Part shown: in pieces, positions 303 to 17,900 of the stretch
Layout: every line of letters starts with the position of its first letter
Position numbering within the stretch: the first letter of the stretch is position 1
Assembly (NCBI GenBank): GCA_046758445.1
Contig: JBHIAE010000056.1
Location: 1-18,167 of the forward strand
Direction of reading: 5' to 3'
Length of the DNA: 18,167 nt
DNA from: Candidatus Thorarchaeota archaeon
GTDB lineage: Archaea; Asgardarchaeota; Thorarchaeia; Thorarchaeales; Thorarchaeaceae
The notes under the pieces: model-generated
Database searches by the model: none
What the model saw: only the letters and a program-made list of their open reading frames with translations
What the model was told of the DNA's origin: nothing
Made by a program: the position numbers and the translations under genes

Positions 303-857
303 CTACTTTTGACTCGCTATTTGGCGATCAACCTCTTCAAGCTGTGAATCAAGCTCGGTTTCCTTCGCCTTGTAGTCGTCCTCGGGGATGTAACCCCTCA
401 TGTAGTCGAACCTCAAGTCAGTAAGCGAAGCCTTCAGTCTATCCTTCTGCTGAAGCAGGAAGTCTAGCTGGTCACTACCTTCTGCCGGTGCCTCTGCCAC
501 TGGCTCAGCTGCTGGTTCAGCAACAGGTTCAGGTGCAGGTTCGGCAGCAGGTTCAGCACTAGCCTCGGCTGTAGACTCAGCAGCAGCCTCTACAGCTGGA
601 GCTGGTTCTGGAGTCGGAGCCGGCGCAGCTGGCGGTGTCGTCTGTACACTCTCCATCTGTTCCATGTTCTTTCTGAGAGTATCAATCTGTGTGGCAATCT
701 CTGTGAAGCTGTCATTTATCGTCTTGTTGATTGCAGACTTCATATTGGCTAGATTAGCCGCCAAGTCGTCGGCAATCTTCTTAGTTTCTGACACCTTCTT
801 CGCGAAGGTTTCGATTTCCTTCAGCTTCTCAGTTAGTTCACCTATATCAAAGGCCAT
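303..857 (-). CDS. Hypothetical protein: N-terminal coiled coil, Pro/Ala/Glu-rich linker, C-terminal helical hairpin (ESCRT-I core/steadiness-box- or SHOCT-like)
   Basis: 184 aa. GGTGA Shine-Dalgarno (868-864) lies 6 nt before the ATG. Heptad-like residues 1-70, a linker with AEPA/AEPV repeats, and a C-terminus LTDLRFDYMRGYIPEDDYKAKETEL matching the L-x-x-x-Y/F-x-x-G-x-I-x-x-E/D-Y/F helix-turn-helix pattern. The gene is well supported; the family is tentative. Confidence 0.8.
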   Translation of the reverse strand: MAFDIGELTEKLKEIETFAKKVSETKKIADDLAANLANMKSAINKTINDSFTEIATQIDTLRKNMEQMESVQTTPPAAPAPTPEPAPAVEAAAESTAEASAEPAAEPAPEPVAEPAAEPVAEAPAEGSDQLDFLLQQKDRLKASLTDLRFDYMRGYIPEDDYKAKETELDSQLEEVDRQIASQK

Positions 858-906
858 GAAATGTCACCTAGGCATTGCCCTTTACATGGATAGAGCAGGC
901 AGTTGG

Positions 907-920
907 TTCTTAACCTTTGC
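907..920 (-). promoter_or_regulatory. Putative BRE/TATA-like promoter for the 303..857 gene
   Basis: The - strand reads GCAAAGGTTAAGAA, about 50 nt upstream of the ATG, within a 121-bp intergenic gap. Confidence 0.3.
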
Positions 921-978
921 CGTGGTGAATATTCTGCACGATGTGGTTATTCTCAGATTTCCCAAAACGAGGCGCTGA

Positions 979-1830
979 CTATGCCGCCTTGACTTCGGCC
1001 TTCCCTTCCAGAATGGCTTTCCTGATAATCTGAATGAGCCGATCCCTGTATGAGATATCGATGGCAACAAGCTCGTAAGTGGGAATGGCCAGTATCTGAC
1101 CAACTCTCTCTGGCGTGAGAGCCGTTGGAAGGTCCTGCTTGTTAGCGATACCAATCACCTTCGCCTCGGGGACCTCCTCCTTCACTAAGGAAACAAGCTT
1201 CTTGCTTCGCAAAACATTCTCGAGAGTGCTGTCTGTCACAATGACTACGACTTGAGCATTAGCAATCATCTTCGCCCAGAGAATCGAGAACCTCGACTGC
1301 CCCGCAAGGTCCCACAATACTATGTTAGCATTCTGCACTTCTTCTGGGAGACGTTTGATACTCACACCTATTGTGGGATCATGAACCAATGGGAGAGTTT
1401 CCCCTCTGAGTAGATGTAACGTGGTAGTCTTTCCAACTCCTGCGAAACCAAGGATGGCTACCTTGACCATGGTTACTGCAATCTCATCCACTTTTGAGTC
1501 AAACCCATCAAGGGGCTGTTTCGCTGTTGCCAGATTGGCGAATTCTCGCATGAAGGTTTCAACCAGTTGGGTCATCTTGTCCTCCATCTGCACTGTATCA
1601 TCAGCCTTGTCAGCAACGAAGACAAACGTGAAGAGATCTCTTTGAGCATAGAATATTCTAGAGATGGAAACGTTCATGAACTCGGTCTTTCCCTCTAGAT
1701 CCTGGCTCTTGAGGAACTGGGCCAGATTCACCAAGAACTCAACTAGATTGGACTTGGATTCGCTCTTGGCGTACTCTTTGGAGTAGACCACATCGTCCTC
1801 TTGACCCAGAATGTAGACGCTTCTGATCAA
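979..1830 (-). CDS. Small GTPase (Ras superfamily, Arf-like) with an N-terminal longin domain
   Basis: G1 GFAGVGKTT, G2 PTIG, G3 WDLAGQ, G4 NKQDLP (Arf-type), and a switch II ending ILW. The N-terminal ~120 aa (MIRSVYILGQEDDVVYSKEY...FTFVFVADKADD...LVETFMREF) follow the beta-beta-alpha-beta-beta-beta-alpha-alpha longin pattern. The TTG start is 1 nt after the upstream TAA. Confidence 0.92.
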   Translation of the reverse strand: MIRSVYILGQEDDVVYSKEYAKSESKSNLVEFLVNLAQFLKSQDLEGKTEFMNVSISRIFYAQRDLFTFVFVADKADDTVQMEDKMTQLVETFMREFANLATAKQPLDGFDSKVDEIAVTMVKVAILGFAGVGKTTTLHLLRGETLPLVHDPTIGVSIKRLPEEVQNANIVLWDLAGQSRFSILWAKMIANAQVVVIVTDSTLENVLRSKKLVSLVKEEVPEAKVIGIANKQDLPTALTPERVGQILAIPTYELVAIDISYRDRLIQIIRKAILEGKAEVKAA

Positions 1831-1831
1831 C

Positions 1832-2938
1832 TTACTCGCTCCAAGTCTGAATTAAAAGCTCCAAATATCTTCTTGCTGTATCAGGGTTTATCTTCTTCTC
1901 TTCAAGCTTTCTCGTGAGTATAGGCAGGATATACTCGGGAAAGAAGACGTCCATTCTAGGGTCAGTAATTAGAGCCCAGACATCCTCCTTCTCAAAGTGG
2001 GCCGCGATTCTCTCCGCCTCCATGGCCCACAGAGCATTCTGTACTACCGCTTCAGGAAATGACGTCATTTCAGAGATATCCTTGACACTCATCGGTTTCG
2101 TTCTCAAACTCTTGAGAACTTCATACTGTATTGTGTTTGACAAGATTCGGGAGATCTTCTCTCTGTCCTCTAAAATGGGAGAGTTCGGGTCATCAATGGG
2201 AAGTGTTGGATTGTATCCTCCTCCAGGGGGTTCTGGTGTGAAGAAGTTGGAAACATACTCCATGTATTCTTGGACGATTCCAGGAACTGTTTCTGAGGCC
2301 TTTGCGTAAGACTCCTGGGGTGGAGCCCTATGTGCAAACACGTCCTTTAGCAGGAATGCTGTTTCTAAGGTCTTCCCTACTAGCTCCACCTTCACTAGAC
2401 CGGAATCCATAAGCGGCGTAATTGCTTCAACCAGGTCAACAGAATCGGTCTGGACTTGGCTCTTTAGCCACAGAGAGAGCTTCGCTGTGCTCTCAACACC
2501 TTCTGTGTGTAGTCGTTCTAGCAGAAGTGCAGTTGATGGTGTCAGGTAGATCTGAGCACATCTCTGTTCGCTAGTTATTGTTGGCATTGAACTCCTGCTA
2601 CTCAGAATCTCTCCTAGGTCCACAGAATCAGGATCCTGACTCATGAGCTCAAGCATGAAACGGCCCATCCCTGAAATCTCGTCCCTGACTTCTTCAAGTA
2701 GCTCGTCAGGACTGAGTACGAATCCCACAGTCCAGCCTGGGTAAGCTCCCATTGTGAATGAGGCTATCCGCATTCCTTCAGCTTCTAGTTCCGTGATATC
2801 CTTCTTCTCCCCCTTCTGGTGCTCATAGAACACTAAGTTCAGAGCCTTCTCAGTTAGTGTTAGGGATGAAGGATGACGCTTCTTGACGATGAATCCCTGA
2901 TAGTCGTCCAAATGGACAATGAAGGCGGCTTCTGGCAT
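1832..2938 (-). CDS. Longin/uDENN-like N-terminal domain plus two predicted winged-helix domains (NPRL2/DENN-like architecture); putative GTPase regulator
   Basis: The N-terminus AFIVHLDDYQGFIVKKRHP resembles the hhhh-x-F/L-D-x-x-x-G-x-x-h-x-x-x-x-P opening of uDENN/NPRL longins, followed by RIASF and TVGFVL strands. wHTH-like segments are LLLERLHTEG...LMDSGLVKVE and YEVLKSLRTKPMSVKDISE...LWAMEAERI. ATG 2938 is preferred; the ORF extends to GTG 2971. Confidence 0.7.
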   Translation of the reverse strand: MPEAAFIVHLDDYQGFIVKKRHPSSLTLTEKALNLVFYEHQKGEKKDITELEAEGMRIASFTMGAYPGWTVGFVLSPDELLEEVRDEISGMGRFMLELMSQDPDSVDLGEILSSRSSMPTITSEQRCAQIYLTPSTALLLERLHTEGVESTAKLSLWLKSQVQTDSVDLVEAITPLMDSGLVKVELVGKTLETAFLLKDVFAHRAPPQESYAKASETVPGIVQEYMEYVSNFFTPEPPGGGYNPTLPIDDPNSPILEDREKISRILSNTIQYEVLKSLRTKPMSVKDISEMTSFPEAVVQNALWAMEAERIAAHFEKEDVWALITDPRMDVFFPEYILPILTRKLEEKKINPDTARRYLELLIQTWSE

Positions 2939-3222
2939 TTGACTTTCCCATCTCGGCAAGACAGTCTCCACATAAATGTGTGACCATTATGTATTCACCA
3001 TACGTCATTGACCCCTCGGGTCTGGCCTTCTTCTAAGTGATTTACGCACTTCTACCCTCTACTCCCCACAGTGGTCACAATATGGATCTAGGACTCTCCT
3101 ATTCCGTGTCATGGCTTACATTCCTAATGCTGAAACTGCCCCGATACCTGTAGAGAATACCGTGGCCATGCGTTAGAAAGGATGAAAAGGGTTTCCTCGG
3201 TTCTCGAATACGGTGGGCTCCG

Positions 3223-5529
3223 ATGGACCTTGAGAGCGAAGTCCTCATAGTTCCTGCGACTGCAACACGCAGTCTTCAGCTGGCAGGAGGCCCACCAATG
3301 GAACAGGCAGTCCCTGAGGACTATGCGCTCGCTGTCTTTGCACTAAGGGCCTTAGATGAGCGGAATGGGAATGAACTTGAGTTTCTCCTCAAAGCGTACT
3401 TCCCGGTGCTTGTAGTCGAATCTTCCGTTCCTAACCAGTACTTCCTGATTGAGCTTCTTGGAATCAGCTCTTCGAAGCTGACGCCCATCAGCAAGACTGA
3501 CACATCTGTGCTCGGGAACGTTATTGAATCCCTAAAGGCATCTGAAAGTATAATGACGTGCATTGAAGATGCTCGTCGAGCACTAGAGTCGATTAGAAGT
3601 GCCAAAGAGCTGACTATTCTGGGACTGGTGTCAGGCTCTCTCGCGGACGGAATTGGAAAGACCATGCACTGGCCTTCGCGGAGCTATGTTGAGCCTTATG
3701 CTGTCTTGCTCCCTGAGGTGATTTCGAAGAGCCAAGCAGGTGAACAGTCTGTCACTCTTCAGGAAACTTCTTGGGCTTCAGAACACGCTAAAGGTCTAGT
3801 ATCGGACTTGTGGAATACCGTTCACACAAGAACCACAGGAGAGATTGGCTCACGTGAAGCGGAGATTTCAGAAGCTTCATCGAGGCTTGAGCAGAGAATC
3901 GAGGTCCTTCGAAAGGAAGTAGATAACCTTCAATTCCGCATGGCACAGAAACGAGGTGGAGAAGCCGAGGAACTCAAGAGAACCAGAGATGCAAGGATGG
4001 CGGCCCTCAAAAGGGATGAGTCCCGGCTGAAGAGCCTTCGAGACCGTACGGATAATGCATCGAGAGAGCTGCTAGAACGCAAGGAGCAGCTCGGCAAGGA
4101 TATTGAGGATGTCAAGGTGGAATTGGTTCGTGTGCAAAGTGCTCTCAACGAGATACTCGTTCCGGGAGGTGGTATTGAGATTGAGAACACTACAGCCCTC
4201 CTTCTCATGCCTTTCATTGTTGCTGGGTTCTCAAAGAAGGGTAGACTGCGAGTTTCAGTGTACCCACCATCTAGGTTCATGGATGAACTTCAAAGAGTTG
4301 GACGTCGTCGTGAGTTCGTCGACGTCCTGGAACCTGCATCTCCCATAGCAAGCTACCTCGCTGGAGTTCTTGCAGAACGAGCCAATAGCGACGTCGGTCT
4401 TAGGAAGACGCTTCGTGATTCTTCACGTGACCGGAATCTTCTCGGATCAATGGGAGCTCGCAAGCTGATCCGGGAAGGAGTGCAATCATTGATTTCTGAC
4501 GGATTCGCAAAGAAATCCATTCAGGAAGATCTGGAAACACTTCTGGCTGGAATTCCTGAAACCAAACTGAAACCGGATCGCCGAGTAAGACCAAGAGTCG
4601 TGTCTGCCAAGGACGGAATGTGCGAGGTCAAGTTCCATGTTCATGATGACTCTGGTGCTTCAATCATTCGTGCAACTGTTGAGTTAGGTGTCTTCAAGGC
4701 TAAATCTGATTCCAAAGGGGTTGTGAGAGCTTCGTTGCCTAGAAGCAGCTATGAAGGTCATGTTTCAGCATTTGGCTTCAAAGATAGAACAATTGAGTTT
4801 ACTCTGCGTTCAGCGGATGATGTAGTGATACCTATCGTCCTAAGCCCCCTAACGAAAGAGGAAGTGCTTGACCAAGAGCTCGACCGACTGGTGGAAAGAG
4901 CACGGCGCATAGAACAGATACGCGAACGGCTTTGGGAAGCCTTCGAGAAACAAGGCTCAACGCTTCTCACGATTCCCGCGTACAGGAGTGCACTGGTGGA
5001 TCTACTCTCTGAGCTTGGATATGAACCGGAGGCCTGGATAGCTCAAGCCAAGAAGAGGCGAGGAATGGTCAAAGGTCTTCTAAAGCGCGATGACAGAACT
5101 GACAGGATTCGCAGAGACATACTTCGCCTGGCTGAGGACTCGAAGCAGGCAGGAGGAATAATGCTTCTATCCGAGCTTCTTGTGCGTCTTGATAGAATGG
5201 GTTGGGCCACTAGTCAGGATGAAACTGAAAAGATCCTTGATGACATGTCGAAAGAGGGCCTGGTTCAAGGCACAACGAAGCTTGAGAGCGGTGCTTTGCT
5301 TGTAAAGTTCGTTCCGGTTTCTCTCACTAGTGACCCCCAGCAGATTCTAAGTCTTGCATCGAGCAGAGATGGTAAGATTACCATTGAAGATGCCGTTGTA
5401 AACCTCGGGTGGAATGAAGAGCGAGTCAGAATTGCGTTGGACCTGCTTGTCGAAAATGGAGTAGCCAAGGTCCAGAAGAGTTACTCGAAGAGTACCCAGT
5501 ATTGGTTCCCTGGACTTCGAAAGAAATAA
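3223..5529 (+). CDS. Multidomain ESCRT-II Vps22/Vps36 (EAP30)-domain protein: N-terminal alpha/beta region with coiled coil, carboxypeptidase-regulatory-like beta-sandwich, C-terminal tandem winged helices
   Basis: aa ~547-768 carry Vps22/SNF8 hallmarks in the correct order: IPAYRSALVDLLSELGYEP, GGIMLLSELL, VKFVPVSLTSDPQQILSLA, LGWNEERVRIALDLLVENGVA and the terminal YWFPGL. aa ~467-541 (VKFHVHDDSGASIIRATVEL...SDSKG...YEGHVSAFGF) are a transthyretin-like sandwich. aa ~190-310 are coiled coil. No signal peptide or TM segment is visible. Confidence 0.88.
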   Translation: MDLESEVLIVPATATRSLQLAGGPPMEQAVPEDYALAVFALRALDERNGNELEFLLKAYFPVLVVESSVPNQYFLIELLGISSSKLTPISKTDTSVLGNVIESLKASESIMTCIEDARRALESIRSAKELTILGLVSGSLADGIGKTMHWPSRSYVEPYAVLLPEVISKSQAGEQSVTLQETSWASEHAKGLVSDLWNTVHTRTTGEIGSREAEISEASSRLEQRIEVLRKEVDNLQFRMAQKRGGEAEELKRTRDARMAALKRDESRLKSLRDRTDNASRELLERKEQLGKDIEDVKVELVRVQSALNEILVPGGGIEIENTTALLLMPFIVAGFSKKGRLRVSVYPPSRFMDELQRVGRRREFVDVLEPASPIASYLAGVLAERANSDVGLRKTLRDSSRDRNLLGSMGARKLIREGVQSLISDGFAKKSIQEDLETLLAGIPETKLKPDRRVRPRVVSAKDGMCEVKFHVHDDSGASIIRATVELGVFKAKSDSKGVVRASLPRSSYEGHVSAFGFKDRTIEFTLRSADDVVIPIVLSPLTKEEVLDQELDRLVERARRIEQIRERLWEAFEKQGSTLLTIPAYRSALVDLLSELGYEPEAWIAQAKKRRGMVKGLLKRDDRTDRIRRDILRLAEDSKQAGGIMLLSELLVRLDRMGWATSQDETEKILDDMSKEGLVQGTTKLESGALLVKFVPVSLTSDPQQILSLASSRDGKITIEDAVVNLGWNEERVRIALDLLVENGVAKVQKSYSKSTQYWFPGLRKK

Positions 5530-5575
5530 GACGCGCCTCACATGCCTTCTTCTTTACAAGAGAGGAGTCTTGTCC

Positions 5576-6361
5576 ATGAATCGACTATCGCATATGGTCT
5601 TCGCCTTCTCGCTGTTTGTAGCTCTCTATACTCTTGTCTATGCGTACAGCGTTTGGCTGGACTTCCCAGGGCAACTGTTTGATTTGTTGTTCTACTACGT
5701 GGCAGGTGGGATCATTCTAACACTTGTGGCCGTGCCAATACTCTATTGGAAGGCCCCACACAAGGAAAAGCCCGGGCGTACGATTGGCAACAAAGGTGCA
5801 GTGGGAGCCATGTCCTTTGTTACTTTCTGCGTGGGCTCTCTGGGTGGCGCTGTTGTATACCAGTATATCAGTGGGATCTTAATCATTGGTGACCTCAGCA
5901 TCTTCATCGGTTCGCTGATCATTGTAGCAGGCGCCCTTATGCCCGACTGGGACATCCCCTTCTTGGGCATCTCGAGACATCGGAACATCGTCTTTCATTC
6001 TGTCATTCTACCATTCCTAGCCGTGCTTTTGACGCTGATCAACGTTGCTCAGAGCATTGCGTCAACATACTCCTTAGCTATTGGCGCACACATCGAGTTC
6101 TACGTAACCGCGCTTTTCCTAATCGGCTATGCCTCTCATCTGTATCTTGACATCTTTCCCAGTGATGCCAATGCCCTCGAGCTAGTCTGGCGGACCGTTG
6201 ATGTCACTAGCGAGGCTCCGACTGGTCTGAAGCCACTTGGCCCCATCAAGATTTCAAAGAAGAATGCACGAATGTGGCTGGTTAGCAACGCAACGCTTCT
6301 TGTCTTGGTCGCTGCTGGACTAATGGGCCTTTACTTCTACAATCTGGCAATCTTGCCTTGA
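5576..6361 (+). CDS. Multi-pass membrane metal-dependent hydrolase (YdjM/DUF457-like)
   Basis: Family motifs: N-terminal His (NRLSH), GALMPDWD, RHRNIVFHS, GYASHLYLD; about seven hydrophobic segments. SD GAGGAG (5562-5567) is 8 nt before ATG 5576, which is preferred over TTG 5570. Confidence 0.85.
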   Translation: MNRLSHMVFAFSLFVALYTLVYAYSVWLDFPGQLFDLLFYYVAGGIILTLVAVPILYWKAPHKEKPGRTIGNKGAVGAMSFVTFCVGSLGGAVVYQYISGILIIGDLSIFIGSLIIVAGALMPDWDIPFLGISRHRNIVFHSVILPFLAVLLTLINVAQSIASTYSLAIGAHIEFYVTALFLIGYASHLYLDIFPSDANALELVWRTVDVTSEAPTGLKPLGPIKISKKNARMWLVSNATLLVLVAAGLMGLYFYNLAILP

Positions 6362-6415: not shown

Positions 6416-6694
6416 CTAGTCCCACTCTTCGAAACTGTCGTCACTCTCAAGGGCATCTCTCTCAGGAGGCAAGTCGCTCTCATCGATGTCCTCTTCGTCA
6501 TCTTCGAACAGGAAGGTGTCTGAGTCATCCTCTACCTCCGTCCGTGCCCGACTCTTCTTTGCTTTCTTCTTGAGATGTCCGGCCATGCAGAGGTAGTCTA
6601 TTGAGTCAAAATGCTCACACTCAGGACAACACTCGCCCTTGTTGTTGCAGGTATAGAAGGCCCCGCAGATTTTGCAACACTTTAGCTCCGACAC
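6416..6694 (-). CDS. Small Cys-rich (putative Zn-binding) protein with a basic patch and an acidic C-terminal tail
   Basis: From GTG 6694, 92 aa: CCKIC-x5-C-x5-CCPEC-x9-C-x3-H, then KKKAKKSRAR, then a D/E-rich tail ending SDDSFEEWD. It fills the gap between two + strand genes and has a strongly non-random composition. The start is uncertain (the ORF extends to ATG 6757). Confidence 0.72.
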   Translation of the reverse strand: MSELKCCKICGAFYTCNNKGECCPECEHFDSIDYLCMAGHLKKKAKKSRARTEVEDDSDTFLFEDDEEDIDESDLPPERDALESDDSFEEWD

Positions 6695-6774
6695 ATTTGC
6701 GCACCAAGGGAGTTGGTAAATTGCGTATGCGGACGCACGGTTATGCCAAATAAGCATGTCTCTAGGGCCTAGGG

Positions 6775-6808: not shown

Positions 6809-8560
6809 TTGTTTACTTTGGCTGAGTTTGAGCTTGAGATACGAAAGCATGTGCTTGACAACGCTGTGAAATACGGCGGAAAGGCAACTGTCAAGTCTGT
6901 CATGAGTGCCATAATGGGCACGCATGCAGAGCTGAGGTCTCGAGCACAGGAGGTCAAAGTAATTGTTGAGCGATTGGTCGTGGAAATAGGGAAGATGACT
7001 GTCGATGACCAGCGCGATGAACTCATGCAGCTTGCCCCAGAAATGCTTGAGACTGTTCCAGAAGATCTCGAAGAGCCCAAAGAGCTTCCTGCTCTTAGTA
7101 ATGTTGACAAATGGCCCAAGGTCGTCATGAGACTTGCTCCCTTCCCGTCAGGTCCACTTCACATTGGAAACGCCAGGATGGTAGTACTGAACGACTACTA
7201 CGTGAAGAGGTACGAAGGCGAGCTTATTCTTGTCTTTGATGACACAATAGGCTCTGCTGAGAAGGTCGTTGAACCTGAGGCATTCGACTTGATTCCGAAG
7301 GATCTGGAATACCTCGAGGTGGAGTGGCACAAGACCGTCTACAAGTCAGACCGCCTAGAGTTGTTCTACAAGTACGCAGTAGACTTGATCAAGAAGAACG
7401 AGGCCTATGTGTGCGACTGTGACGCTGATGTCTGGAGAACCGAACACAAGGCCAAGGGAAAGGCATGTCACTGTAGTATTCTGCATACTGATGACAATCT
7501 GGCTCGATGGAAGAAGATGCTTGACGGCACGTATCCTGAGAGGGGCGCGGCAGTCCGCTTTCGAACAGGAATGACTGATCCCGACCCTGCTATGAGGGAC
7601 CATGTGATTCTCAGAATATCTGAAGCTGAGCATCCTCGAGTAGGAACAAAGTACAGAGTATGGCCACTACTAGAATACTCCTGGGGTATCGACGATCACG
7701 AGCTAGGCATTACTCACATCATAAGAGGCAAAGACCTTGTGAAGGAAGGTAAGATCGAGCAGCATATCTGGAACATCTACGGGTGGCAACATCCTGAGCT
7801 CATCTACTACGGTCGCTTGAAGTTCGAAGACGCCAAGCTGAGCAAGAGCAAGTCTCGAAAAGAGGTCCTTGATGGAGTCTACACAGGGTGGGATGACCCG
7901 CGAACATGGAGCATGCAATCTCTCGCAAAACGTGGTATTCATCCTGATGCCGTGCGGAAGGCGATGTTGGACCTTGGCCTGAGTATTGTGGACATCTCAA
8001 TATCCATGAAGAGCGTGTATTCAGAGAACAGGAAGCTTCGCGATGCAGAGGCTCCAAGATTGTTCTTCGTGAGGTCACCCGTTTGGATTTCCCTCACCGG
8101 ACTTCCACCAGAGGTCCTTGAGGCTGAAGCCCCAGTTCATCCTGACTTTCCGGATAGAGGAGTGCGTCACATCAATCTAGGGCGCCCGACTGACACCGAT
8201 GCTCCTGTCATCATCGGAATCGCTGAGAAGGACCTAGAGCGTCTATCTGATGGAGACTTGTTCAGACTGAAAGACCTAGCAAACTTCAAGCTCAAGAAAG
8301 GGAAGAAACCAAGGGCAACGTTCCACAGTATCGAAGTGGACAGCGTAAGGGCGGCCGGGGGCTCCATTATTCATTGGGTGCCGAAGGAGAACGCGGTCCC
8401 TGTGGAAGTGACTCTGATTGACGGCGAAGTAGTGTCTGGCCTGGGGGAGCCTGGTATCAGAAACATCCAGCAGGGGACATTTCTGCAGTTCGAGCGTGTC
8501 GGCTTTGCCCGGGTGTACGAGGTCGGAGACCCTGTAAGAGCGGCCTTTGGGCACAAATGA
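6809..8560 (+). CDS. gltX: Glutamate--tRNA ligase, archaeal type (probably non-discriminating)
   Basis: RLAPFPSGPLHIGNAR (HIGH motif), AYVCDC...CHC, THIIRGKD, LSKS (KMSKS equivalent), YTGWDDPR, QFERVGF, and the archaeal N-terminal helical domain (NAVKYGGKA). The start is TTG 6809 or TTG 6818. Confidence 0.97.
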   Translation: MFTLAEFELEIRKHVLDNAVKYGGKATVKSVMSAIMGTHAELRSRAQEVKVIVERLVVEIGKMTVDDQRDELMQLAPEMLETVPEDLEEPKELPALSNVDKWPKVVMRLAPFPSGPLHIGNARMVVLNDYYVKRYEGELILVFDDTIGSAEKVVEPEAFDLIPKDLEYLEVEWHKTVYKSDRLELFYKYAVDLIKKNEAYVCDCDADVWRTEHKAKGKACHCSILHTDDNLARWKKMLDGTYPERGAAVRFRTGMTDPDPAMRDHVILRISEAEHPRVGTKYRVWPLLEYSWGIDDHELGITHIIRGKDLVKEGKIEQHIWNIYGWQHPELIYYGRLKFEDAKLSKSKSRKEVLDGVYTGWDDPRTWSMQSLAKRGIHPDAVRKAMLDLGLSIVDISISMKSVYSENRKLRDAEAPRLFFVRSPVWISLTGLPPEVLEAEAPVHPDFPDRGVRHINLGRPTDTDAPVIIGIAEKDLERLSDGDLFRLKDLANFKLKKGKKPRATFHSIEVDSVRAAGGSIIHWVPKENAVPVEVTLIDGEVVSGLGEPGIRNIQQGTFLQFERVGFARVYEVGDPVRAAFGHK

Positions 8561-8624
8561 CCGCAATGTCCTGCGGCCAAAGAGAACAAATAGCTGGTAG
8601 CAAAGACTCTACTGGGTGTCAGGT

Positions 8625-9377
8625 TTGGCAAAGAAGAAGAAGTCTGCGAAGTCTAGGCTCTCAGCATCGATGTTCAAGACAACCGGTGCCCACGCCAAGA
8701 TGAAGATTGACAGTAAGAAGAAGAAACAGTACTACTTTACGGCGAAGGTGAAGCCCGAGAAGGCTCGAAAGACAGCCACCAAAGACGGTGCGGAGATCTT
8801 GGGTGTGCCATCGAGCGCGGTCAAGGTGAGCAAGCCAGCTTTGAAGTATGATTTCTACTGCATGTACGATGCACTTCTAAACTTGAAGTTCTTGCGGCTC
8901 CGAAAAGAGGAACTCAGCGTAAATGACCAGGTTTCAGGTGCTCTCATAGGCAGAGATGTAGTCCCTCCTCGGAAGGGCAAATCGATACCGGGGAGCGCAC
9001 TCCGTTTCGATGTAGTCGAGCTGTTTGAGATTGAACGGACTGACGGAATGACAGTCGATGGTAGGACAGGTGGCCCAGCTCACGCCGTGGAGAAGCTGCT
9101 GAAACGTGGAGGTAAGAAGAAAGCAACTCCTGCATGGGTGAGGAAGAACAGGGTCTCACCGGGGAAGTTCAACTCGGTTGAGAAGGTAGTCCGTGCGGTC
9201 TCGAAATTAGCAGGACAAAAGCCATCGGGTGCGAAGCGTATTGTCGAGCATGTTCTGAAGTTCAAACAGCTTGATGGGTTCTATCTGCCTACCTATTATG
9301 TCAAGGTGGCAGCTGGAGCTAAGTCACAGATGCTCCGTGTGAACGGTCTGAATGGTGCAGTCTCCCTTGCTGTTTGA
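8625..9377 (+). CDS. Highly basic hypothetical protein with internal two-fold repeat
   Basis: About 250 aa open frame filling the gltX-thiI gap. Hand count is about 39 Lys and 15 Arg against about 20 Asp+Glu. The two halves end in TVDGRTG and RVNGLNG, preceded by YDFYCMY and FYLPTYY. TTG 8625, which follows GGGTG, is preferred over GTG 8616. Confidence 0.8.
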   Translation: MAKKKKSAKSRLSASMFKTTGAHAKMKIDSKKKKQYYFTAKVKPEKARKTATKDGAEILGVPSSAVKVSKPALKYDFYCMYDALLNLKFLRLRKEELSVNDQVSGALIGRDVVPPRKGKSIPGSALRFDVVELFEIERTDGMTVDGRTGGPAHAVEKLLKRGGKKKATPAWVRKNRVSPGKFNSVEKVVRAVSKLAGQKPSGAKRIVEHVLKFKQLDGFYLPTYYVKVAAGAKSQMLRVNGLNGAVSLAV

Positions 9378-11994: not shown

Positions 11995-14900
11995 ATGAGG
12001 AAAACTGGACTAATAGTTGTCTTCATCATTATTCTATTCATAGCCCCGTCCGCGTATACCCCACAGATGATGCCTACCTTGGACGGAGGATCCCGACCAG
12101 TGGAGTCTGGCCCAACATCAGCTGACGGAGGTTATCCTCTGAGCACAGGTACAGGCCAGGCGCTCACCACGCATATTCTCGGCACGGTCGTCAATGGGAC
12201 AGAAGTGCCGGTACAGATTGACACTGACAATATGGCAGTTGGAACGATAGGGATCACAGGGGACTACGCGGGCACAGGAATAGGAGCGACACTCGATACA
12301 TTCACAATGACAGTTCCTAATGCCCTGCGCAACCCTGACTTGAATGATTGGCACGAAGAGAGATGGCATGTTGGTGACCCTACCTTCTACGATGACAAGG
12401 TAGCCATACCTGACTCTTGGACACTCGTCAAATCAATCTCAAACCCATCGGAGAGTCCACATCCCCACCACGGTGACTGGGAGTTCAATGACGGTGGAGG
12501 TGGATATGCCGGCAGCCGAGGATTCAGGTTCGATGCCACGCTACCAACTGGCTACCTATTGACCTCCACGGATAAGATTTACATCAGTCAACATGTCCAT
12601 GCGCCTTGGCGTGACCTGTACTCGGCAACGATAAGGTTCCAGTACTATGTGAGAGCGGCCTCACAAATGGGCGACCTGGTACATCTCTTCACAAGATTTG
12701 CAGGAGTCGAAACACAGTTCCGTGTGTTCGAGTCGGGAGATACAAAGGACACATGGTTGCCAGCGATCGTCGAAATACCTTCCTCCTCGCTAACGTCAGT
12801 AAACCTTCCGGACTCCTTGCTCTTCGAGATTGGGCTCGGTACGAATTTCGACGGTATCACAGCCACTGGTCCAGACGAGTACGTCTTCATCGACGAGATT
12901 GAGCTTGAACTTGAGGTTCGCCCGTTCCCCGAGCAAGTCGGTCTTCGGGTCAATGGGACAGAGGTAGTCGGCTCAACTCCTGGAAGTACTTTCCCATTCG
13001 TTCCAGATGATATCACAGGTGATACTGGAAGGGACTGCTGGGACGACACTTCAGGCATCGACCTCGACGGCTACGACAATGATGGCAACCTCGAGGTCGG
13101 CATTTGGGGGACCGATTGGCTCACGTCGAATCCGTTTGAGGTTGGACTTCAGTTCCGACTTGACATTCCGCAGGGAGCAGTCATCGAAAGAGCCTATCTT
13201 GAAACGGAAGCCTCAGGGCAGCAGAATCTAGTGGATAGACGAGTGCATATTGCCGGGGAGAATTCCTCCGGTTTGCCTGTCGATCCGTTCGAGAACCACC
13301 TGGGCTTGCACCTTGAAGATGAGTTCAACTGGATCCAAACAAGCATCGATTGGCAACCAGACTACTGGACTAGTGACGTCAGATATTCTTCACCGGACAT
13401 AGCTCCACTTCTCCAGAAGGTCGTCTCTAATAGCGACTGGGCAGCAGGTCAATATGTGGCTATAATGCTCAGCTACGCTTGGTCAAGCTCGTATCAATCT
13501 CGGAATGATCTCAAAGGTTCGAATCATCCCTCATGGAACAACTATACTCAAGATGAAATGGCTCGTTTCTATGTATGGTATCGGATTCCACATTCGGATG
13601 ACGTCATTCCTACGAATGAAGACTTCGCAAGAAACTCGCTTCAGTTTAGGAAGGACATAACAATTGACAGCGCGAAAGTCACAGAGGATCTGTCAGACTT
13701 CCCGGTCTTGATTGACCTTTATGACACAGATTTGAGAACTGACGTACGACCTGATGGTGAGGATATCGCCTTCATTGTCGGCGGGCAGTTTGTTGAACAT
13801 GAGGTTGAGCTCTTTGAGCAGGACTACAACACTACACATGCCCATCTGATTGCATGGGTGAAGATTCCCAGTCTCTCATCGTCGGTCGACACCGTGATCA
13901 CTATGCTCTATGGGAATCTGATAGTGACAGGACTCCAGTCTTCGGGCGTTTGGGATGGCTACGAAATCGTTCAGCATATGAATGATAATCCAAATGGCAT
14001 AAGCTACGATAGCACGTACAATCATCACAGCGGGCCGTCATTTGGAAGCATGACCATTGGCGATCTTGTACCGGGAGCAATAGGAAATGCTACTGACTTT
14101 GACGGCCAAGATGACGTGATAAGCGTCGGACAGATTGAAACAGACGATTGGCCTAGCTTCACTGTGAGCGGTTGGATATACCACGACGTTTCTGGGGACG
14201 ACAGAGTCTTTTCGAAGGCCCCTAATACGAATGAGGCTAATGCAATCATCCACTTCGCCGTAGACGATACCGACAAGTTCAGAGTGAGAATGAACACTGA
14301 CGGCGTTGGCGGCGGCGCATCATTGTCCGTCGACAGCATCGGTTTCACCGCTCCAGGATCGTGGTACTATCTTACATGGAGCTGGAGTGCTGCAACCGAG
14401 GAGATGCGACTTCACATCAATGGAACCTTTGACCGGACTGCCGCTCGAGATGGCGACACAGTGCTGAACTCATATGTGCCGTTTGTCATAGGCAATTGGC
14501 AGACTGGCACAGGTAACAATCGATTCTTCGACGGGATGATCGATGAGATACGAATGACCACAAGAGTGCTGTCTGATGGATGGATTGCCACTGAGTATGC
14601 AAACCAGAAAAGCCCATCTAGCTTCTATCTGGTTGGCCCGGAGCAGACAAGTTCAGGCTTGCCTGACATCAAGTCTGCTGCACTTGTCTTCTCCTCAGAA
14701 TCACCAATACCAGTCAGTATTGGCTTCACGATGAGTATGGACTTCGAAGGGACTGGTAAGTCGCTTGATGAGAATCTTAACGAGGGAACCACCTTTTATG
14801 CCACTAATGGGAGTTCAACAGTCGAGTGGACGGCCAAGGTTCTGGTGTCACCCCCGCCTGGTATCACACAGACTGAGGTGTACGTTGAATATCCGGCTAC

Positions 14901-17900
14901 GGAATGGACACCAATCTCTGTCGCAAATCCCCTGGGGCAATCAAAGACGGCTCCAGCCGAATGGACATTCACAGGAGGCAGGTTGGCGATTGCTGCATCT
15001 GCAGTCGATGTATACGGTCTCTGGACTATCAAGTTCGAGTCCTTAAGTTACATCGCTGACTTGGAGTTCGACCTCGGTGGAGGGACATATGCTGATACGG
15101 CAGTGTTCCAGATCAACGATGATCTAGAGATGCGAGCGACATCCTTCTGGCTTGCAGGTTCTACAAGTCAACTCTTCCTAACAGATCCGTCGGGTTCTCT
15201 TTGGAGTACTCCACTATCGAATACAACAGGAGGCAGTCCGCAACACGAGATTCCATCGTTCGTATACAGGAAAGTCATAACAGTGGATCGAAACAAGGTC
15301 CAGCAGGATTTCACCGACTTTCCTGTCTTGATCGACATTGTAGATAGCGATCTGGACGATAAGGCCCAGACAGATGGTGATGACATAGTCTTCGTGCAGA
15401 ACGGAATCATCGTCCCGCACGAGATTGTAGACTATGACCCAGCGTACTCAGGGACTGAAGCCCGGCTAGTAGCTTGGATCAGAGCAAATGTTTCATCTTC
15501 TGTAGACACTGATATCACCATGTACTATGGGAATTCGTTGGTAGGACCTCAAGAGCAGCCATCAGAGGTGTGGAGCAATGGCTATGTCGGTGTCTGGCAT
15601 CTTGAAGAATCTCCGTCAGGCACGAGCGGTGAGATCAAGGACTCAACATCCTACAGGAATGATGGGACGACCGAGGGTTCAATGAATTCAGCCGACTTGA
15701 TCAGCGCAATGATTGGAAACGGTCTTGATTTCGATGAGATTGATGACCTGATACGAGTGAGCGACAGCGTTAGTCTGGACTCTGTTGCGTCATCTGGTAC
15801 CATCCAGATGTGGATTTGGTTTGACATGGATGCAGCAGATGGAGACAGGGACGTGATCATGGAGTCCAGCAACCGATTCGACGGGAACCCAGATGACGGG
15901 TTTGAGTTGGCTACTCAGGAGGACGGGGATCTCTTCTTCTATCCTTGGGGTGGAGAGGGTAATGACTACAATATTGCCCTAAACCAATTTGCAAATCAAA
16001 CATGGCACCTTCTGACAGTGGCACTGGACTACTCGACAAAGACAGTCGACTTCTATGTGGATGGCAGCTTGATTGCGTTCACCTACGAGGGGGCACCAAC
16101 GTACTGGACACAGCTTGCCGAGCCTACTGACTGGCTCTGGGGAGGAGACCCAGATATGCCAGCGAGGTACTTTGACGGCAGGTTCGATGAGATTAGGGTT
16201 TCCAACACAGTCCGTTCTCAAACGTGGTTGCAGACTGAGTTTAACAATCAGGACGATCCTGGCAGCTTCTCCTTGGTAGGGTCCGAACAGCAGAGACAGT
16301 TCTACTATCCCGAATTCAAGAAGACACTGGACAGCACGGCTCCTGCTGGGGTCTGGACTGCAACCGTTCGTTTCAACGACTCTGGAAGCGCAATTGACTA
16401 TAGAGTTGGCATCTATGAGAGAAACTTCACGGTCAAACATGACACGATGCTAACGCTTCAGGAACCGAGCGACGCGGTCGTTGACAGACTATCAATAGCA
16501 GTGGCTGGAGATTGGATCTACATTGAGTATAAGCTTGAAGACAGTGTCAACTCACAATCGTTGTCCGGTGTGACCGTCACAATGAACTGGACAGTGTCCG
16601 GGTCTGGGACTCTGGTCACGCTTGACGACTATAACACAGGCGTCTATGGCAGGATGTTAAATACCGCTGACCTAGGTGACGCCAAGCGGTGGAGAATCAA
16701 TCTTCAGACCAGCCATCCATTTTACAACAACGCAACTGAGTACTTTGACTTGGACTTATACCATTCCACAAGTCTTGACTATGGCGGTGTGATGACAACA
16801 CCTGCAGACTTCAACTTCAGTGCCATCCTGACCTTCACAGATGTCTATGACAATGTCCCGATTGAAGGAGCAACTATCACACGTTCGGATGCCGGGCCCT
16901 TGACCGTTGCTGAGCTGGGTCAGGGTCTGTACAACATATCGATAGAAACAACGGCCTTGAGCTTAGGGGACCACTGGTATGTCTTAGAGGCGGAGAAACC
17001 AGGATATCTCTTTGAGATTTCCACAACCAATGTCACATTCACCCTGAGACAACACTACACGTCTGTGAGTGTGCAAGGCGACCTGACCCAGCCGTATGGG
17101 TTCAACACAGACCTGACAATTGTCCTAACTGACCTTGATACTGGTGGCACAGTGCCGCTCAGCGAAGTGAGTTCGTTCTCATTCAATCCGGCGAGCTACG
17201 GAGTTCAGAATAGACCCGGCTCCAGCTACGATGTAACCTTGACGACGAACACATGGAGTGTTACAGAACCCGCCTCAGAAACAGTTACTCTTTCGGTCGT
17301 GATGTCTGGTACCAAATACGCAACACCACAACCATACTCGTTCGACATCACAATCCGAGCGCATTACACATCGTTAACAGTATCAGGTGTAGTTGTTCAG
17401 CCCTTCGGCAATGTGACTCCGCTTACGGTCTTTCTCTGGGACCACGATACTGAGGCAAGTGTCCCAATTGGCGAGGTTGGTGAGTTTAGCTTCGCTAGGG
17501 GCTTTGACATCGACACGTTCTCAAACCCCTCCAGTTATGATGTGATGTATGACACGTCAGACTGGGCCGTGGGGATCTGGTCTGTGACACTTTCAGTGGA
17601 TATTCCAAGTTCAGTCTACCAGAATCCTAGTGACTATACTTTCTCCGTCACGATTCGAAGCATGACGACGGTCATGTACCATGACCCAAAGGACCTAGTG
17701 TTCTCAGCAGGGGAGGACTTCACAATCGACCTAAGAGTCAACGTCAGTGAGCCTGGTGACAGCTATGGCCTGCCAGTAAGAAGTCTTACCCAGGCAGAGT
17801 TCTCGGAGCCCTCATATCCGTTTACAGTGGACAATGCAGCACAAAACATTGGAAAGTACACATTCACTATTTCTTGGTCTGACCTGAGTGGGGTGGGAGT

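Follow-up and report, generated by a model that had tools for sequence, protein, structure and literature searches.

A small-GTPase operon beside a non-canonical Vps22-family gene in Thorarchaeota: probably two separable and possibly coupled units

The locus at positions 303–6361 of the window (the whole 18,167-nt stretch of DNA that was analysed) is probably composed of two neighbouring, separable units that are possibly coupled, a reading to which we give a probability of roughly 60%. The first unit, the P3-P2-P1 operon, would be a small-GTPase switch. The second, P4-P5, would supply an alternative ESCRT-II stalk subunit (P4), in which a Vps22 core stands behind a beta-sandwich and a 445-residue module, together with a membrane protein (P5). 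Five adjacent ORFs around one divergent intergenic region had been described in the earlier note, and their coordinates and domain assignments were confirmed as follows.

303 to 857, minus strand: P1, 184 aa; coiled coil, linker and C-terminal helical hairpin
979 to 1830, minus strand: P2, 283 aa; probable longin domain and Arf-like GTPase
1832 to 2938, minus strand: P3, 368 aa; longin domain and two winged helices, NPRL2/NPRL3-like
2939 to 3222, no strand: intergenic region, 284 bp, divergent, common to the P3-P2-P1 and P4-P5 units
3223 to 5529, plus strand: P4, full ORF, 768 aa
3223 to 4557, plus strand: P4 N-module, aa 1–445; archaeal, with a coiled-coil hairpin inside
4618 to 4851, plus strand: P4 beta-sandwich, aa 466–543; transthyretin-like / carboxypeptidase-regulatory
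4855 to 5529, plus strand: P4 Vps22/EAP30 core, aa 545–768
5570 to 6361, plus strand: P5, 263 aa; YdjM-family polytopic membrane protein

P5 starts ∼40 nt past the end of P4. The stop of P3 and the start of P2 are 1 nt apart in the window, and the two genes overlap or abut at orthologous loci. An upstream GTG at 2971 is a possible start of P3, but its homologues (367–370 aa, 97% cover) begin at Met12. No tRNA or Rfam family was found in the intergenic region, which contained only short ORFs, none of them conserved. A multi-Cys zinc-finger gene coding for 143 aa occupies this position in other genera. Pfam and Foldseek searches upheld the families proposed earlier, with the longin domain of P2 only sub-threshold and P5 at the YdjM cut-off.

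P4 genuinely belongs to the Vps22 family, as a non-canonical member whose gene lies apart from the canonical ESCRT cluster. Its core has a long helix at the N-terminus, then two winged helices, and ends in YSKSTQYWFPGLR; it scored 27.7 bits against Pfam EAP30 (cut-off 26.8). Foldseek matched P4 to human and yeast Vps22 (3cuq_A, 4.5e-7; 1u5t_A, 1.7e-6), both ranked over Vps36, and phmmer matched the core to canonical Asgard Vps22 of ∼245 aa at 6.6e-24; the Vps22 domain recognized in the earlier note is well founded. The core showed 29% identity to the canonical Vps22 of its own genome (E 8e-19) and, in the fold alignment, 23–24% to the human and yeast proteins. That canonical Vps22, as well as Vps25, ESCRT-III (Snf7) and Vps4, was located outside the window on contig C10, in agreement with the earlier statement that the last three are missing from it. 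P4 would find its partners among these C10-encoded proteins.

The beta-sandwich in front of the core matched Pfam CarboxypepD_reg at 3.9e-6, below its cut-off; it was aligned by VIA-align to 5aq0_B with Z 11.7 and an rmsd of 1.4 over 78 residues, and Foldseek matched it to 9hfj and 6hif_Y. The N-module, modelled with pLDDT mostly of 85–95, comprises an alpha/beta domain, a long antiparallel coiled-coil hairpin (aa 169–311, nt 3727–4155) and an alpha/beta plus helical domain. No match to a solved structure was obtained for this module, which was searched only as part of the longer P4 query; residues 4–442 resemble a 541-aa Bathyarchaeota cluster (TM 0.56 by target). Distant relatives of ∼545 aa, found in many Asgard families, consist of the N-module alone. 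P4 itself was found only in Thorarchaeota, one sister family and Asgardarchaeia.

P5 matched Pfam YdjM at 29.0 bits, exactly equal to the cut-off. It has about 6–7 hydrophobic segments, and eight residues do not vary among 39 orthologs: H8, D126, D128, H137, H143, E176, H190 and D194. By family, P5 would be a membrane metal-dependent hydrolase. The Pfam match, the invariant His/Asp residues and the polytopic character are shared with the YdjM/DUF457 membrane-bound metal-dependent hydrolases, a family for which we know of no substrate.

For the GTPase unit, the pairing of P3 with P2 is solid. P3-family genes lie directly upstream of a P2-family GTPase in all three cases in this genome (contigs C56, C6 and C17), and the pair also occurs on contig C34 of the sister family (G311) and at an Asgardarchaeia locus (L063). 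The GTPase part of P2 (aa 119–283, nt 982–1476) matched Pfam Arf at 2.8e-19, and its best solved relatives were Arl1/Arf1 (1e-15 to 1e-13). The motifs GFAGVGKTT, T153, WDLAGQ and NKQD are intact, and all are invariant in 21 orthologs. Residues 1–118 (nt 1477–1830) probably form a longin domain, as judged by sub-threshold matches to Clat_adaptor_s in 5 of 12 members and to Fuz_longin_1 in 3 of 12. P2 is 77–100% identical across the Thorarchaeota family and is conserved more than GluRS.

The AF2 model of P3 (pLDDT 89.6, pTM 0.85) showed a longin domain at aa 1–116 (nt 2591–2938), a winged helix at aa 131–198 (nt 2345–2548) and a second, ArsR-like winged helix at aa 246–335 (nt 1934–2203). The best solved matches by Foldseek were GATOR1 NPRL2/NPRL3 and yeast Npr2/3 (2.6e-4 to 2e-3), and VIA-align gave Z 10.4 for a Lokiarchaeota longin (8yqg_B) and Z 10.2 for NPRL2 (8fw5_B). 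Sequence similarity between P3 and NPRL2/3 was not detectable by HMMER. Earlier work had already noted longin-GTPase fusions, as well as a family of NPRL2-like longins present in most Thor MAGs (bioRxiv 10.1101/2020.10.19.343400; PMC10933270). The proposal that the longin-winged-helix protein and the longin-GTPase form a switch thus gained support from the NPRL2/3-like fold, the 1-nt spacing, the 3/3 pairing and the presence of the pair in Asgardarchaeia. We infer the interactions and activities at the locus along these lines: the longin domains of P3 and P2 would pair, as in GATOR1, FLCN-FNIP and C9orf72-SMCR8, and P3 would thereby sit at the nucleotide pocket of P2 and set its GTP/GDP state. 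FLCN-FNIP and C9orf72-SMCR8 are related longin GAP pairs, and GATOR1 acts on RagA/Gtr1.

Both in the Thorarchaeota family and in the sister family, P1 is encoded downstream of P2. It has a conserved N-terminal helix (∼aa 8–70), then a linker that is rich in Pro, Ala and Glu and varies in length, and finally a conserved helical hairpin at the C-terminus, in which the motif TDLRFDYMRGxIxExxYKxKE is invariant. Each of the 16 aligned orthologs gave sub-threshold matches to two Pfam models, the CdvA coiled-coil (PF18822) and GvpG. With its coiled coil, flexible linker and CdvA/GvpG-like hairpin, P1 may be an adaptor or effector of the switch.

The winged helices of P3 and the divergent layout could also be read as a regulatory and not a physical link, in which P3 would be a DNA-binding regulator of the shared promoter, set by the nucleotide state of P2, and would govern the expression of P4-P5 at the level of transcription (that of P5 in genomes where P4 was lost). 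The best matches of its C-terminal winged helix are repressors of the ArsR/SmtB type (Z 9.2) and Z-alpha domains (E 0.001), some public records name P3 orthologs ArsR family transcriptional regulator, and P3 is divergent from P4, or from P5 in P4-less genomes, divergent transcription being a common layout for a regulator and its target. Nevertheless, P3 as a whole chain matches NPRL2/NPRL3 best, and in those proteins the winged helices serve as protein-protein modules. Moreover, the paralogous genes of the P3 family do not stand divergent to any P4- or P5-like gene, the closest P3 relative in the sister family is on a separate contig from P2-P1-P4, and the zinc-finger gene lies between P3 and the intergenic region in many genera. 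We consider this explanation very improbable.

That the locus holds two separable units is indicated by the comparison of genomes. The five-gene order was found again at practically every Thorarchaeota species locus with enough flank. In six Thorarchaeota genomes (95–99% complete), P4 was absent altogether, while P1-P2-P3 divergent from P5-GluRS were kept. Both the GluRS tree and the P2+P3 tree, sampled by genus, require P4 presence to change four times, and genomes without P4 are placed as sisters to genomes with it (SH-aLRT 96–99%). P4 was lost on four independent occasions, while P1-P3 and P5 stayed in place. Conversely, P5 is absent from three genera (g5, g8 and g10), all of which retain P4.

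These patterns bear on the earlier proposal of one GTPase-gated ESCRT-II-like pathway, in which the P2/P3 longin pair would act as the switch, GTP-bound P2 would recruit P4 (with P1) as a scaffold, P4 would nucleate Vps25/ESCRT-III or act alone, and P5 would modify the membrane. The divergent arrangement is conserved in ∼70 Thorarchaeota species; however, within the family synteny is just as strong for GluRS and other housekeeping genes. Outside it, G311 has a different gene order, with P2 (and P1) 3 kb upstream of P4, and the P3 and P2 orthologs of L063 lie 8 kb from a P4 ortholog of 24% identity, whereas the contig of the P4 ortholog in Asgardarchaeum G001 has no P2/P3 ortholog. The expected synteny across Asgards was thus kept in the Thorarchaeota family and partly in G311 and L063, but was broken in G001 and by the losses of P4 and P5. 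A P2-P4 distance of no more than 8 kb in three differently ordered lineages (the family, G311 and L063) could be more than inherited synteny.

The coiled-coil hairpin of P4 carries a conserved charged patch, such as GTPase effectors typically present. Along this hairpin R225 does not vary and L229 hardly does, even in homologues of 16–18% identity. In 3/3 sister pairs, the terminal P2+P3 branches are slightly longer on the P4-less side than on the P4-bearing side, and the GluRS branches are not, a weak hint of co-evolution. Makarova et al. proposed that longin-containing ESCRT-related proteins are linked to small GTPases in Asgard archaea (PMC11188069), which also favours one pathway. Against it, no ESCRT-like neighbours were detected for the two paralogous P3-P2 pairs of the same genome, and the N-module-only relatives showed a GTPase/ESCRT context in just 1 of 13 loci, none conserved. 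The GTPase switch and the non-canonical Vps22 protein stand, but the losses of P4 and P5 speak against an obligatory machine, and we regard a single pathway as rather unlikely. The link of P4 to the GTPase operon rests on proximity, and because the parts are separable in comparative genomics, a single GTPase-gated ESCRT machine remains unproven. Under the preferred reading of two units, P4 might be, for example, one dispensable effector of the switch; the shared divergent promoter region and the old neighbourhood make coupling possible, facultative at most.

Compared with canonical Vps22 (EAP30/SNF8), the last 224 residues of P4 make up the full core of helix and tandem winged helices, but P4 is three times longer through its N-module and beta-sandwich, its gene lies away from Vps25, ESCRT-III and Vps4, and it was lost repeatedly. 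Hatano et al. described a single Vps22/36-like gene per Asgard genome and no Vps36 (PMC9192718), whereas this genome has P4 besides canonical Vps22. Eukaryotic Vps36 (EAP45) likewise has an EAP30-type core behind a large N-terminal extension, used there for targeting, and coexists with a plain Vps22 in one genome. However, its GLUE/PH domain and zinc fingers were not detected in P4, whose core is nearer to Vps22; the likeness appears to be one of plan, and homology is not claimed. The euryarchaeal ESCRT-associated arCOG09748 (Makarova et al. 2024, PMC11188069), compared by description only, has a similar plan, but its genes adjoin Vps4 and ESCRT-III, and it has one winged helix instead of the full EAP30 core. 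The YdjM/DUF457-type P5 is not co-inherited with P4.

P3 has the same plan as NPRL2-NPRL3 of GATOR1 (Npr2-Npr3 of SEACIT), an N-terminal longin followed by winged helices. It lacks the strict GP motif of GAP-type longins as defined in PMC12290439: G15 is invariant, but the next residue is F, L or V. Nor could a conserved arginine finger be assigned in it. GATOR1 has DEPDC5 as a third subunit, whereas the P3-P2 system is without a DEPDC5-like one. Rag GTPases carry a C-terminal roadblock; P2 is instead Arf-like by sequence with an N-terminal longin-like accessory domain. P3 is paired, genetically, with a small GTPase, and since this GTPase brings a second longin-type domain, a two-longin platform on the GTPase is plausible.

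The source assembly is a Thorarchaeota genome of 3.25 Mb and 93% completeness, in which the window makes up the entire contig C56. Five open reading frames (ORFs) were found at the coordinates that the earlier note had assigned to them, and its domain calls were also correct:

303-857, (-): P1, coiled-coil/hairpin protein
979-1830, (-): P2, probable longin domain and Arf-like GTPase
1832-2938, (-): P3, longin domain and two winged helices; start at Met12, as in orthologs of 367-370 aa, rather than at the upstream GTG
3223-5529, (+): P4, 768-aa Vps22-domain protein
5570-6361, (+): P5, YdjM-type membrane protein

P3 and P2 are separated by 1 nt, P2 and P1 by 121 nt, and P4 and P5 by ∼40 nt. Neither a tRNA nor an Rfam family was detected anywhere in the window, and the divergent P3/P4 spacer of 284 bp also lacked conserved ORFs. 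In other Thorarchaeota genera, P3 and P4 flank a gene for a 143-aa multi-Cys zinc-finger protein (B-box-like), which is on the same strand as P3 (L019:7485-7916 (-)); it is missing in the genus of the window, where P3 and P4 are only those 284 bp apart. Between P5 and GluRS, a small Cys-rich protein without Pfam match is encoded at 6416-6757 (-). This 113-aa ORF, whose acidic tail with a Trp-Asp end had been described before, is kept at the same site in nearly all Thorarchaeota loci at 52–91% identity. Directly after GluRS, a 253-aa protein without Pfam or NCBIfam match (8616-9377 (+)) is present in most Thorarchaeota loci at 52–72% identity. A giant ORF (11995-18165 (+), >2057 aa) continues past the contig end; it matches Laminin_G_3 (3.4e-31, two stretches) and DUF2341, and is weakly similar (E 3e-5) to 1234-1258-aa proteins near the Asgardarchaeia P4 orthologs.

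The claim with the most support at this locus is the pairing of P3 with P2. Asgard genomes carry dozens of small GTPases and longin/roadblock proteins. Matching the GTPases to their regulators by genome layout has been reported as difficult (PMC10933270). In the window's genome, each of the three P3-family genes (C56:1832-2971, C6:28540-29700 and C17:32672-33847) is immediately followed downstream by a P2-family GTPase gene. The pair also occurs in the single genome of a sister family (G311, contig C34) and in an Asgardarchaeia locus (L063), with E values of 5e-24 for the P3 homolog and 1e-42 for the P2 homolog. The two paralogous pairs of P3-like and Arf-like GTPase genes in the window's genome span C17:32672-36006 and C6:26125-29700; three ORFs of 111-124 aa (roadblock size) come after the former, and the GTPase of the latter has 587 aa with a C-terminal extension of ∼330 aa.

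For P2, Arf was the best Pfam family of aa 119-283 (2.8e-19), and the closest solved relatives were Arl1/Arf1 at 1e-15. The motifs GFAGVGKTT, T153, WDLAGQ (WDxxGQ switch II) and NKQD were invariant among 21 orthologs, and identity across the Thorarchaeota family was 77–100%, above that of GluRS. The N-terminal 118 residues gave sub-threshold matches to the longin families Clat_adaptor_s (5 of 12 members, best E 0.0041) and Fuz_longin_1 (3 of 12), and the PDB profile search placed the AP-2 mu N-terminus at E 0.5. The predicted pattern of strands and helices suggests that this region may be longin-like.

Sequence searches with P3 returned a weak wHTH signal alone; HMMER profiles against PDB sequences matched wHTH proteins only, NPRL2 not being among them, and Pfam gave nothing for the N-terminal piece up to E 10. 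The AlphaFold2 model, built from 18 orthologs, reached a pLDDT of 89.6 and a pTM of 0.85. It comprises the following domains:

aa 1-116: longin domain, beta-beta-alpha-beta-beta-beta-alpha
aa 131-198: winged helix
aa 246-335: ArsR-like winged helix

A transcriptional link between the two halves of the locus, exerted through these winged helices, was considered very improbable. The top whole-chain PDB matches in Foldseek were NPRL2/NPRL3 of GATOR1 and yeast Npr2/Npr3 (E 2.6e-4 to 2e-3), followed by Fuzzy-Inturned, Mon1-Ccz1, zeta-COP and sigma-adaptins. The independent aligner VIA-align scored a Lokiarchaeota longin at Z 10.4 and NPRL2 (8fw5_B) at Z 10.2. P3 agrees with the NPRL2-like family found in most Thor MAGs by Liu et al. 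(bioRxiv 10.1101/2020.10.19.343400). The combination of longin regulator and small GTPase is of a kind already flagged in Asgard surveys, and P3-P2 is another such member. The switch half of the earlier proposal is well supported by the P3-P2 pairing and the folds, with an activity that we infer.

In P1, the third leftward protein, a Pro/Ala/Glu linker of variable length connects a conserved helix at the N-terminus with an almost invariant hairpin at the C-terminus, TDLRFDYMRGxIxExxYKxKE. Both in the Thorarchaeota family and in G311, the P1 gene comes after P2; no P1 homolog was found beside the Asgardarchaeia P3-P2 pair. All 16 orthologs matched the CdvA coiled-coil model at the hairpin, each below the cut-off (best 5.9e-5), and the GvpG model matched it equally well, also below the cut-off (16/16). 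On the rightward side, P5 scored 29.0 bits against Pfam YdjM (cut-off 29) and has 6-7 hydrophobic segments. Its residues H8, D126, D128, H137, H143, E176, H190 and D194 were invariant among 39 orthologs.

P4 was confirmed as a Vps22-domain protein by Pfam EAP30, Foldseek and phmmer. Its model, from 30 orthologs, had a pLDDT of 82.8 and was divided as follows:

aa 1-165: N-module, alpha/beta domain (model)
aa 169-311: N-module, long antiparallel coiled-coil hairpin (model)
aa 324-445: N-module, alpha/beta and helical domain (model)
aa 466-543: transthyretin-like beta-sandwich (Z 11.7, rmsd 1.4)
aa 545-768: Vps22 core (Pfam EAP30, Foldseek, phmmer)

The core scored 27.7 bits against EAP30 (cut-off 26.8), and Foldseek placed human and yeast Vps22 (3cuq_A, 4.5e-7; 1u5t_A, 1.7e-6) ahead of Vps36. 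Exhaustive phmmer recovered canonical Asgard Vps22 proteins of ∼245 aa, publicly named EAP30/Vps36 family, at 6.6e-24. With the canonical Vps22 of the same genome the core shares 29% identity (BLASTP 8e-19). That gene (C10:10226-10984) lies on contig C10 beside Vps25 (C10:9491-10222), together with Vps4, Snf7 and a Zn-ribbon/PH/coiled-coil protein; a second Snf7 was found on contig C11. A weak EAP30 match on contig C7 was rejected as the C-terminal winged helix of MCM. By hhalign, the C-terminal parts of P4 and P3 gave a weak winged-helix signal (29% probability), whilst comparison of the three N-terminal domains (P2, P3, P4) and the middle domain of P4 with one another showed no similarity.

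The N-module of P4 has no named relative, and Pfam searches with its pieces stayed empty up to E 10. In the VIA-align search with whole P4, the coiled coil and the beta-sandwich dominated the matches. An Atlas search with the whole model returned unnamed archaeal clusters only, and the N-module resembled a 541-aa Bathyarchaeota cluster over residues 4-442 (TM 0.56 by target). With a profile that included distant P4 orthologs, N-module-only proteins of ∼545 aa were found in many Asgard families; two further candidates were rejected, P0266 as a fragment at a contig end and P0270 as a fragmented P4. In 13 loci of such proteins from several Asgard families, no neighbour recurred from family to family; the neighbours included GNATs, an ABC ATPase and a GT4 enzyme, and one locus had a GTPase nearby. 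The window's genome also encodes a 527-aa N-module paralogue without Vps22 core (C30:1364-2947 (-), profile E 5e-4), and two small-GTPase genes in tandem (C30:6507-7001 and 7030-7575) are found 3.6 kb away from it. Locus L084 is comparable, with a Ras-like GTPase and a 272-aa longin-like protein at 2 kb from the N-module protein. Neighbours of this kind were absent from eleven other loci.

Hatano et al. reported a single Vps22/36-like gene and no Vps36 in Asgard genomes (PMC9192718). According to Makarova et al., ESCRT-II architectures and paralogue numbers vary, and the text consulted does not describe the architecture of P4 (PMC11188069). P4 is a real, conserved and little-described Vps22 variant, which means that some Asgard lineages carry a second, greatly enlarged Vps22 paralogue. 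The full-length protein was found in about 75 of 85 genomes of the Thorarchaeota family, in G311 and in Asgardarchaeia; elsewhere only canonical Vps22 of ∼250 aa was found.

It was proposed earlier that the five genes form one GTPase-gated ESCRT-II-like pathway. The switch half and the domain calls of this proposal stood; the unity of the five genes was only partly supported, the units being separable in evolution. We read the locus, with a probability of about 0.6, as two neighbouring units whose coupling is facultative at most. An integrated pathway of all five genes is unlikely, because P4 can be lost with P1-P3 and P5 kept, P5 can be lost with P4 kept, and P4 is unlinked in an Asgardarchaeum genome (G001). 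P4 was wholly absent from six genomes of 95–99% completeness (genera g2, g6, g7 and g15), all of which retain P1-P2-P3 divergent from P5-GluRS, with ∼540 bp at the P4 site. A first P2+P3 tree had placed these six loci in one clade, which was rejected as long-branch attraction. In second trees with one locus per genus and close P4-bearing sisters included, both GluRS and P2+P3 gave four changes of P4 presence, and P4-less genomes were sister to P4-bearing ones with 96–99% support. P5 was absent in three genera with P4. The complete chromosome CP070658 has a P4 truncated at the 5' end and P5, and P1-P3 orthologs are absent. In L077 (847-3107, GCA_054390055.1), three consecutive ORFs of 334, 98 and 312 aa occupy the P4 site upstream of GluRS; the first matches P4 residues 2-299, and together they look like a decaying P4 gene.

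Two observations speak weakly for a link. On the P2+P3 tree, P4-less genomes had longer terminal branches than their P4-bearing sisters in all three pairs (L066 v L094, 0.45 v 0.26; L069 v L092/L093, 0.27 v 0.24 and 0.12; L070 v L095, 0.39 v 0.29). GluRS branches showed no such trend. With too few pairs for a statistical test, the P2+P3 difference is a weak lead on a link of P2/P3 to P4. Furthermore, P2 lies close to P4 in three arrangements. Among 54 species-representative Thorarchaeota loci, the order P1-P2-P3/P4-P5/Zn-finger/GluRS/unknown was almost universal; since housekeeping genes are equally syntenic in the family, adjacency alone says little. In the G311 genome, P4 is preceded at 3 kb on its own strand by P2 and a P1-like gene; a different contig carries the closest P3 relative. 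In L063, the P3-P2 pair is 8 kb from the P4 ortholog, with two large uncharacterised genes between. Three different arrangements exceed the expectation from simple inheritance, which is again a weak lead. In G001, only an unrelated Arf-like gene was near the P4 ortholog, and P2/P3 orthologs were absent from that contig. Other neighbours of P4 also differ: in L061, L063, L065 (Asgardarchaeia) and L072 (G311), a 190-235-aa protein and then a GCS2-like protein of ∼1050-1140 aa lie downstream, and the three Asgardarchaeia loci alone add a divergent 780-837-aa protein and a VWA protein. None of these four was near P4 in Thorarchaeota.

A functional link of the two units, that is, GTPase-controlled ESCRT recruitment, is possible but not likely. 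In its most specific form, which is distinctly unlikely, P4 would be a dispensable effector of P2: GTP-bound P2, set by P3, would dock on the conserved coiled-coil hairpin of P4, placing an alternative, Vps36-like ESCRT-II stalk on a membrane and recruiting Vps25 and ESCRT-III. A complex prediction of P2 (GTP, Mg) with P4 aa 1-450, made from separate alignments and run without controls, scored 0.00 (mark 0.32), a value that speaks neither for nor against binding. If the units were functionally linked, they would offer a prokaryotic precedent for ESCRT recruitment under GTPase control; if P4 were an effector of P2, the locus would hold the first prokaryotic switch by which a small GTPase recruits ESCRT, with a GATOR1-like longin regulator working on an Arf-like GTPase. 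The locus offers biochemistry a set of matching proteins, namely P2, P3 as its NPRL2-shaped partner and the co-transcribed P1. The pair also touches the question of which GTPases are served by the Asgard GAP-like longins (PMC12290439).

Compared with known systems, P1 departs from the CdvA plan of a PRC-barrel N-domain, a coiled coil and a C-terminal peptide binding the ESCRT-III winged helix; no PRC barrel was found in P1 by Pfam. P5, a polytopic membrane protein, belongs by its Pfam match and conserved His/Asp metal ligands to the YdjM family, and is a putative membrane-bound metal-dependent hydrolase. P2 has the G1-G5 motifs of the Arf family, but instead of the N-terminal amphipathic membrane helix of Arf it has a globular domain of ∼118 residues with a beta-beta-alpha-beta-beta-beta-alpha pattern. 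P3 follows the NPRL2/NPRL3 plan of an N-terminal longin and then winged-helix domains. However, the target of NPRL2/NPRL3 is a Rag-type GTPase with a C-terminal roadblock, whereas the partner of P3 is Arf-like with an N-terminal extra domain. GAP-type longins are recognised by a GP motif ahead of strand 2 together with a catalytic arginine finger (PMC12290439); in 18 P3 sequences the residue after the invariant G15 is F, L or V and in no case P. No conserved arginine could be placed at the NPRL2 finger position, R21 and R93 being only nearly invariant (Lys in the Asgardarchaeia ortholog). Asgard ESCRT-II genes are associated with Vps25, ESCRT-III and Vps4, but a screen of the 54 orthologous loci by means of the proteins of the window found no Vps25, Snf7, Vps4 or canonical Vps22 up to 8 kb from P4. 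Vps36 is marked by an N-terminal GLUE (split PH) domain, and Vps22 in ESCRT-II is a binding partner of Vps25 and forms the Y-shaped complex with a second EAP30 subunit. P4 aa 1-445 had no PH/GLUE match by Pfam, Foldseek or VIA-align, the fold searches having used the whole P4 model. By both sequence and fold, P4 aa 545-768 has the tandem winged-helix core of Vps22/EAP30 with its preceding helical region, and in plan P4 is comparable to Vps36.
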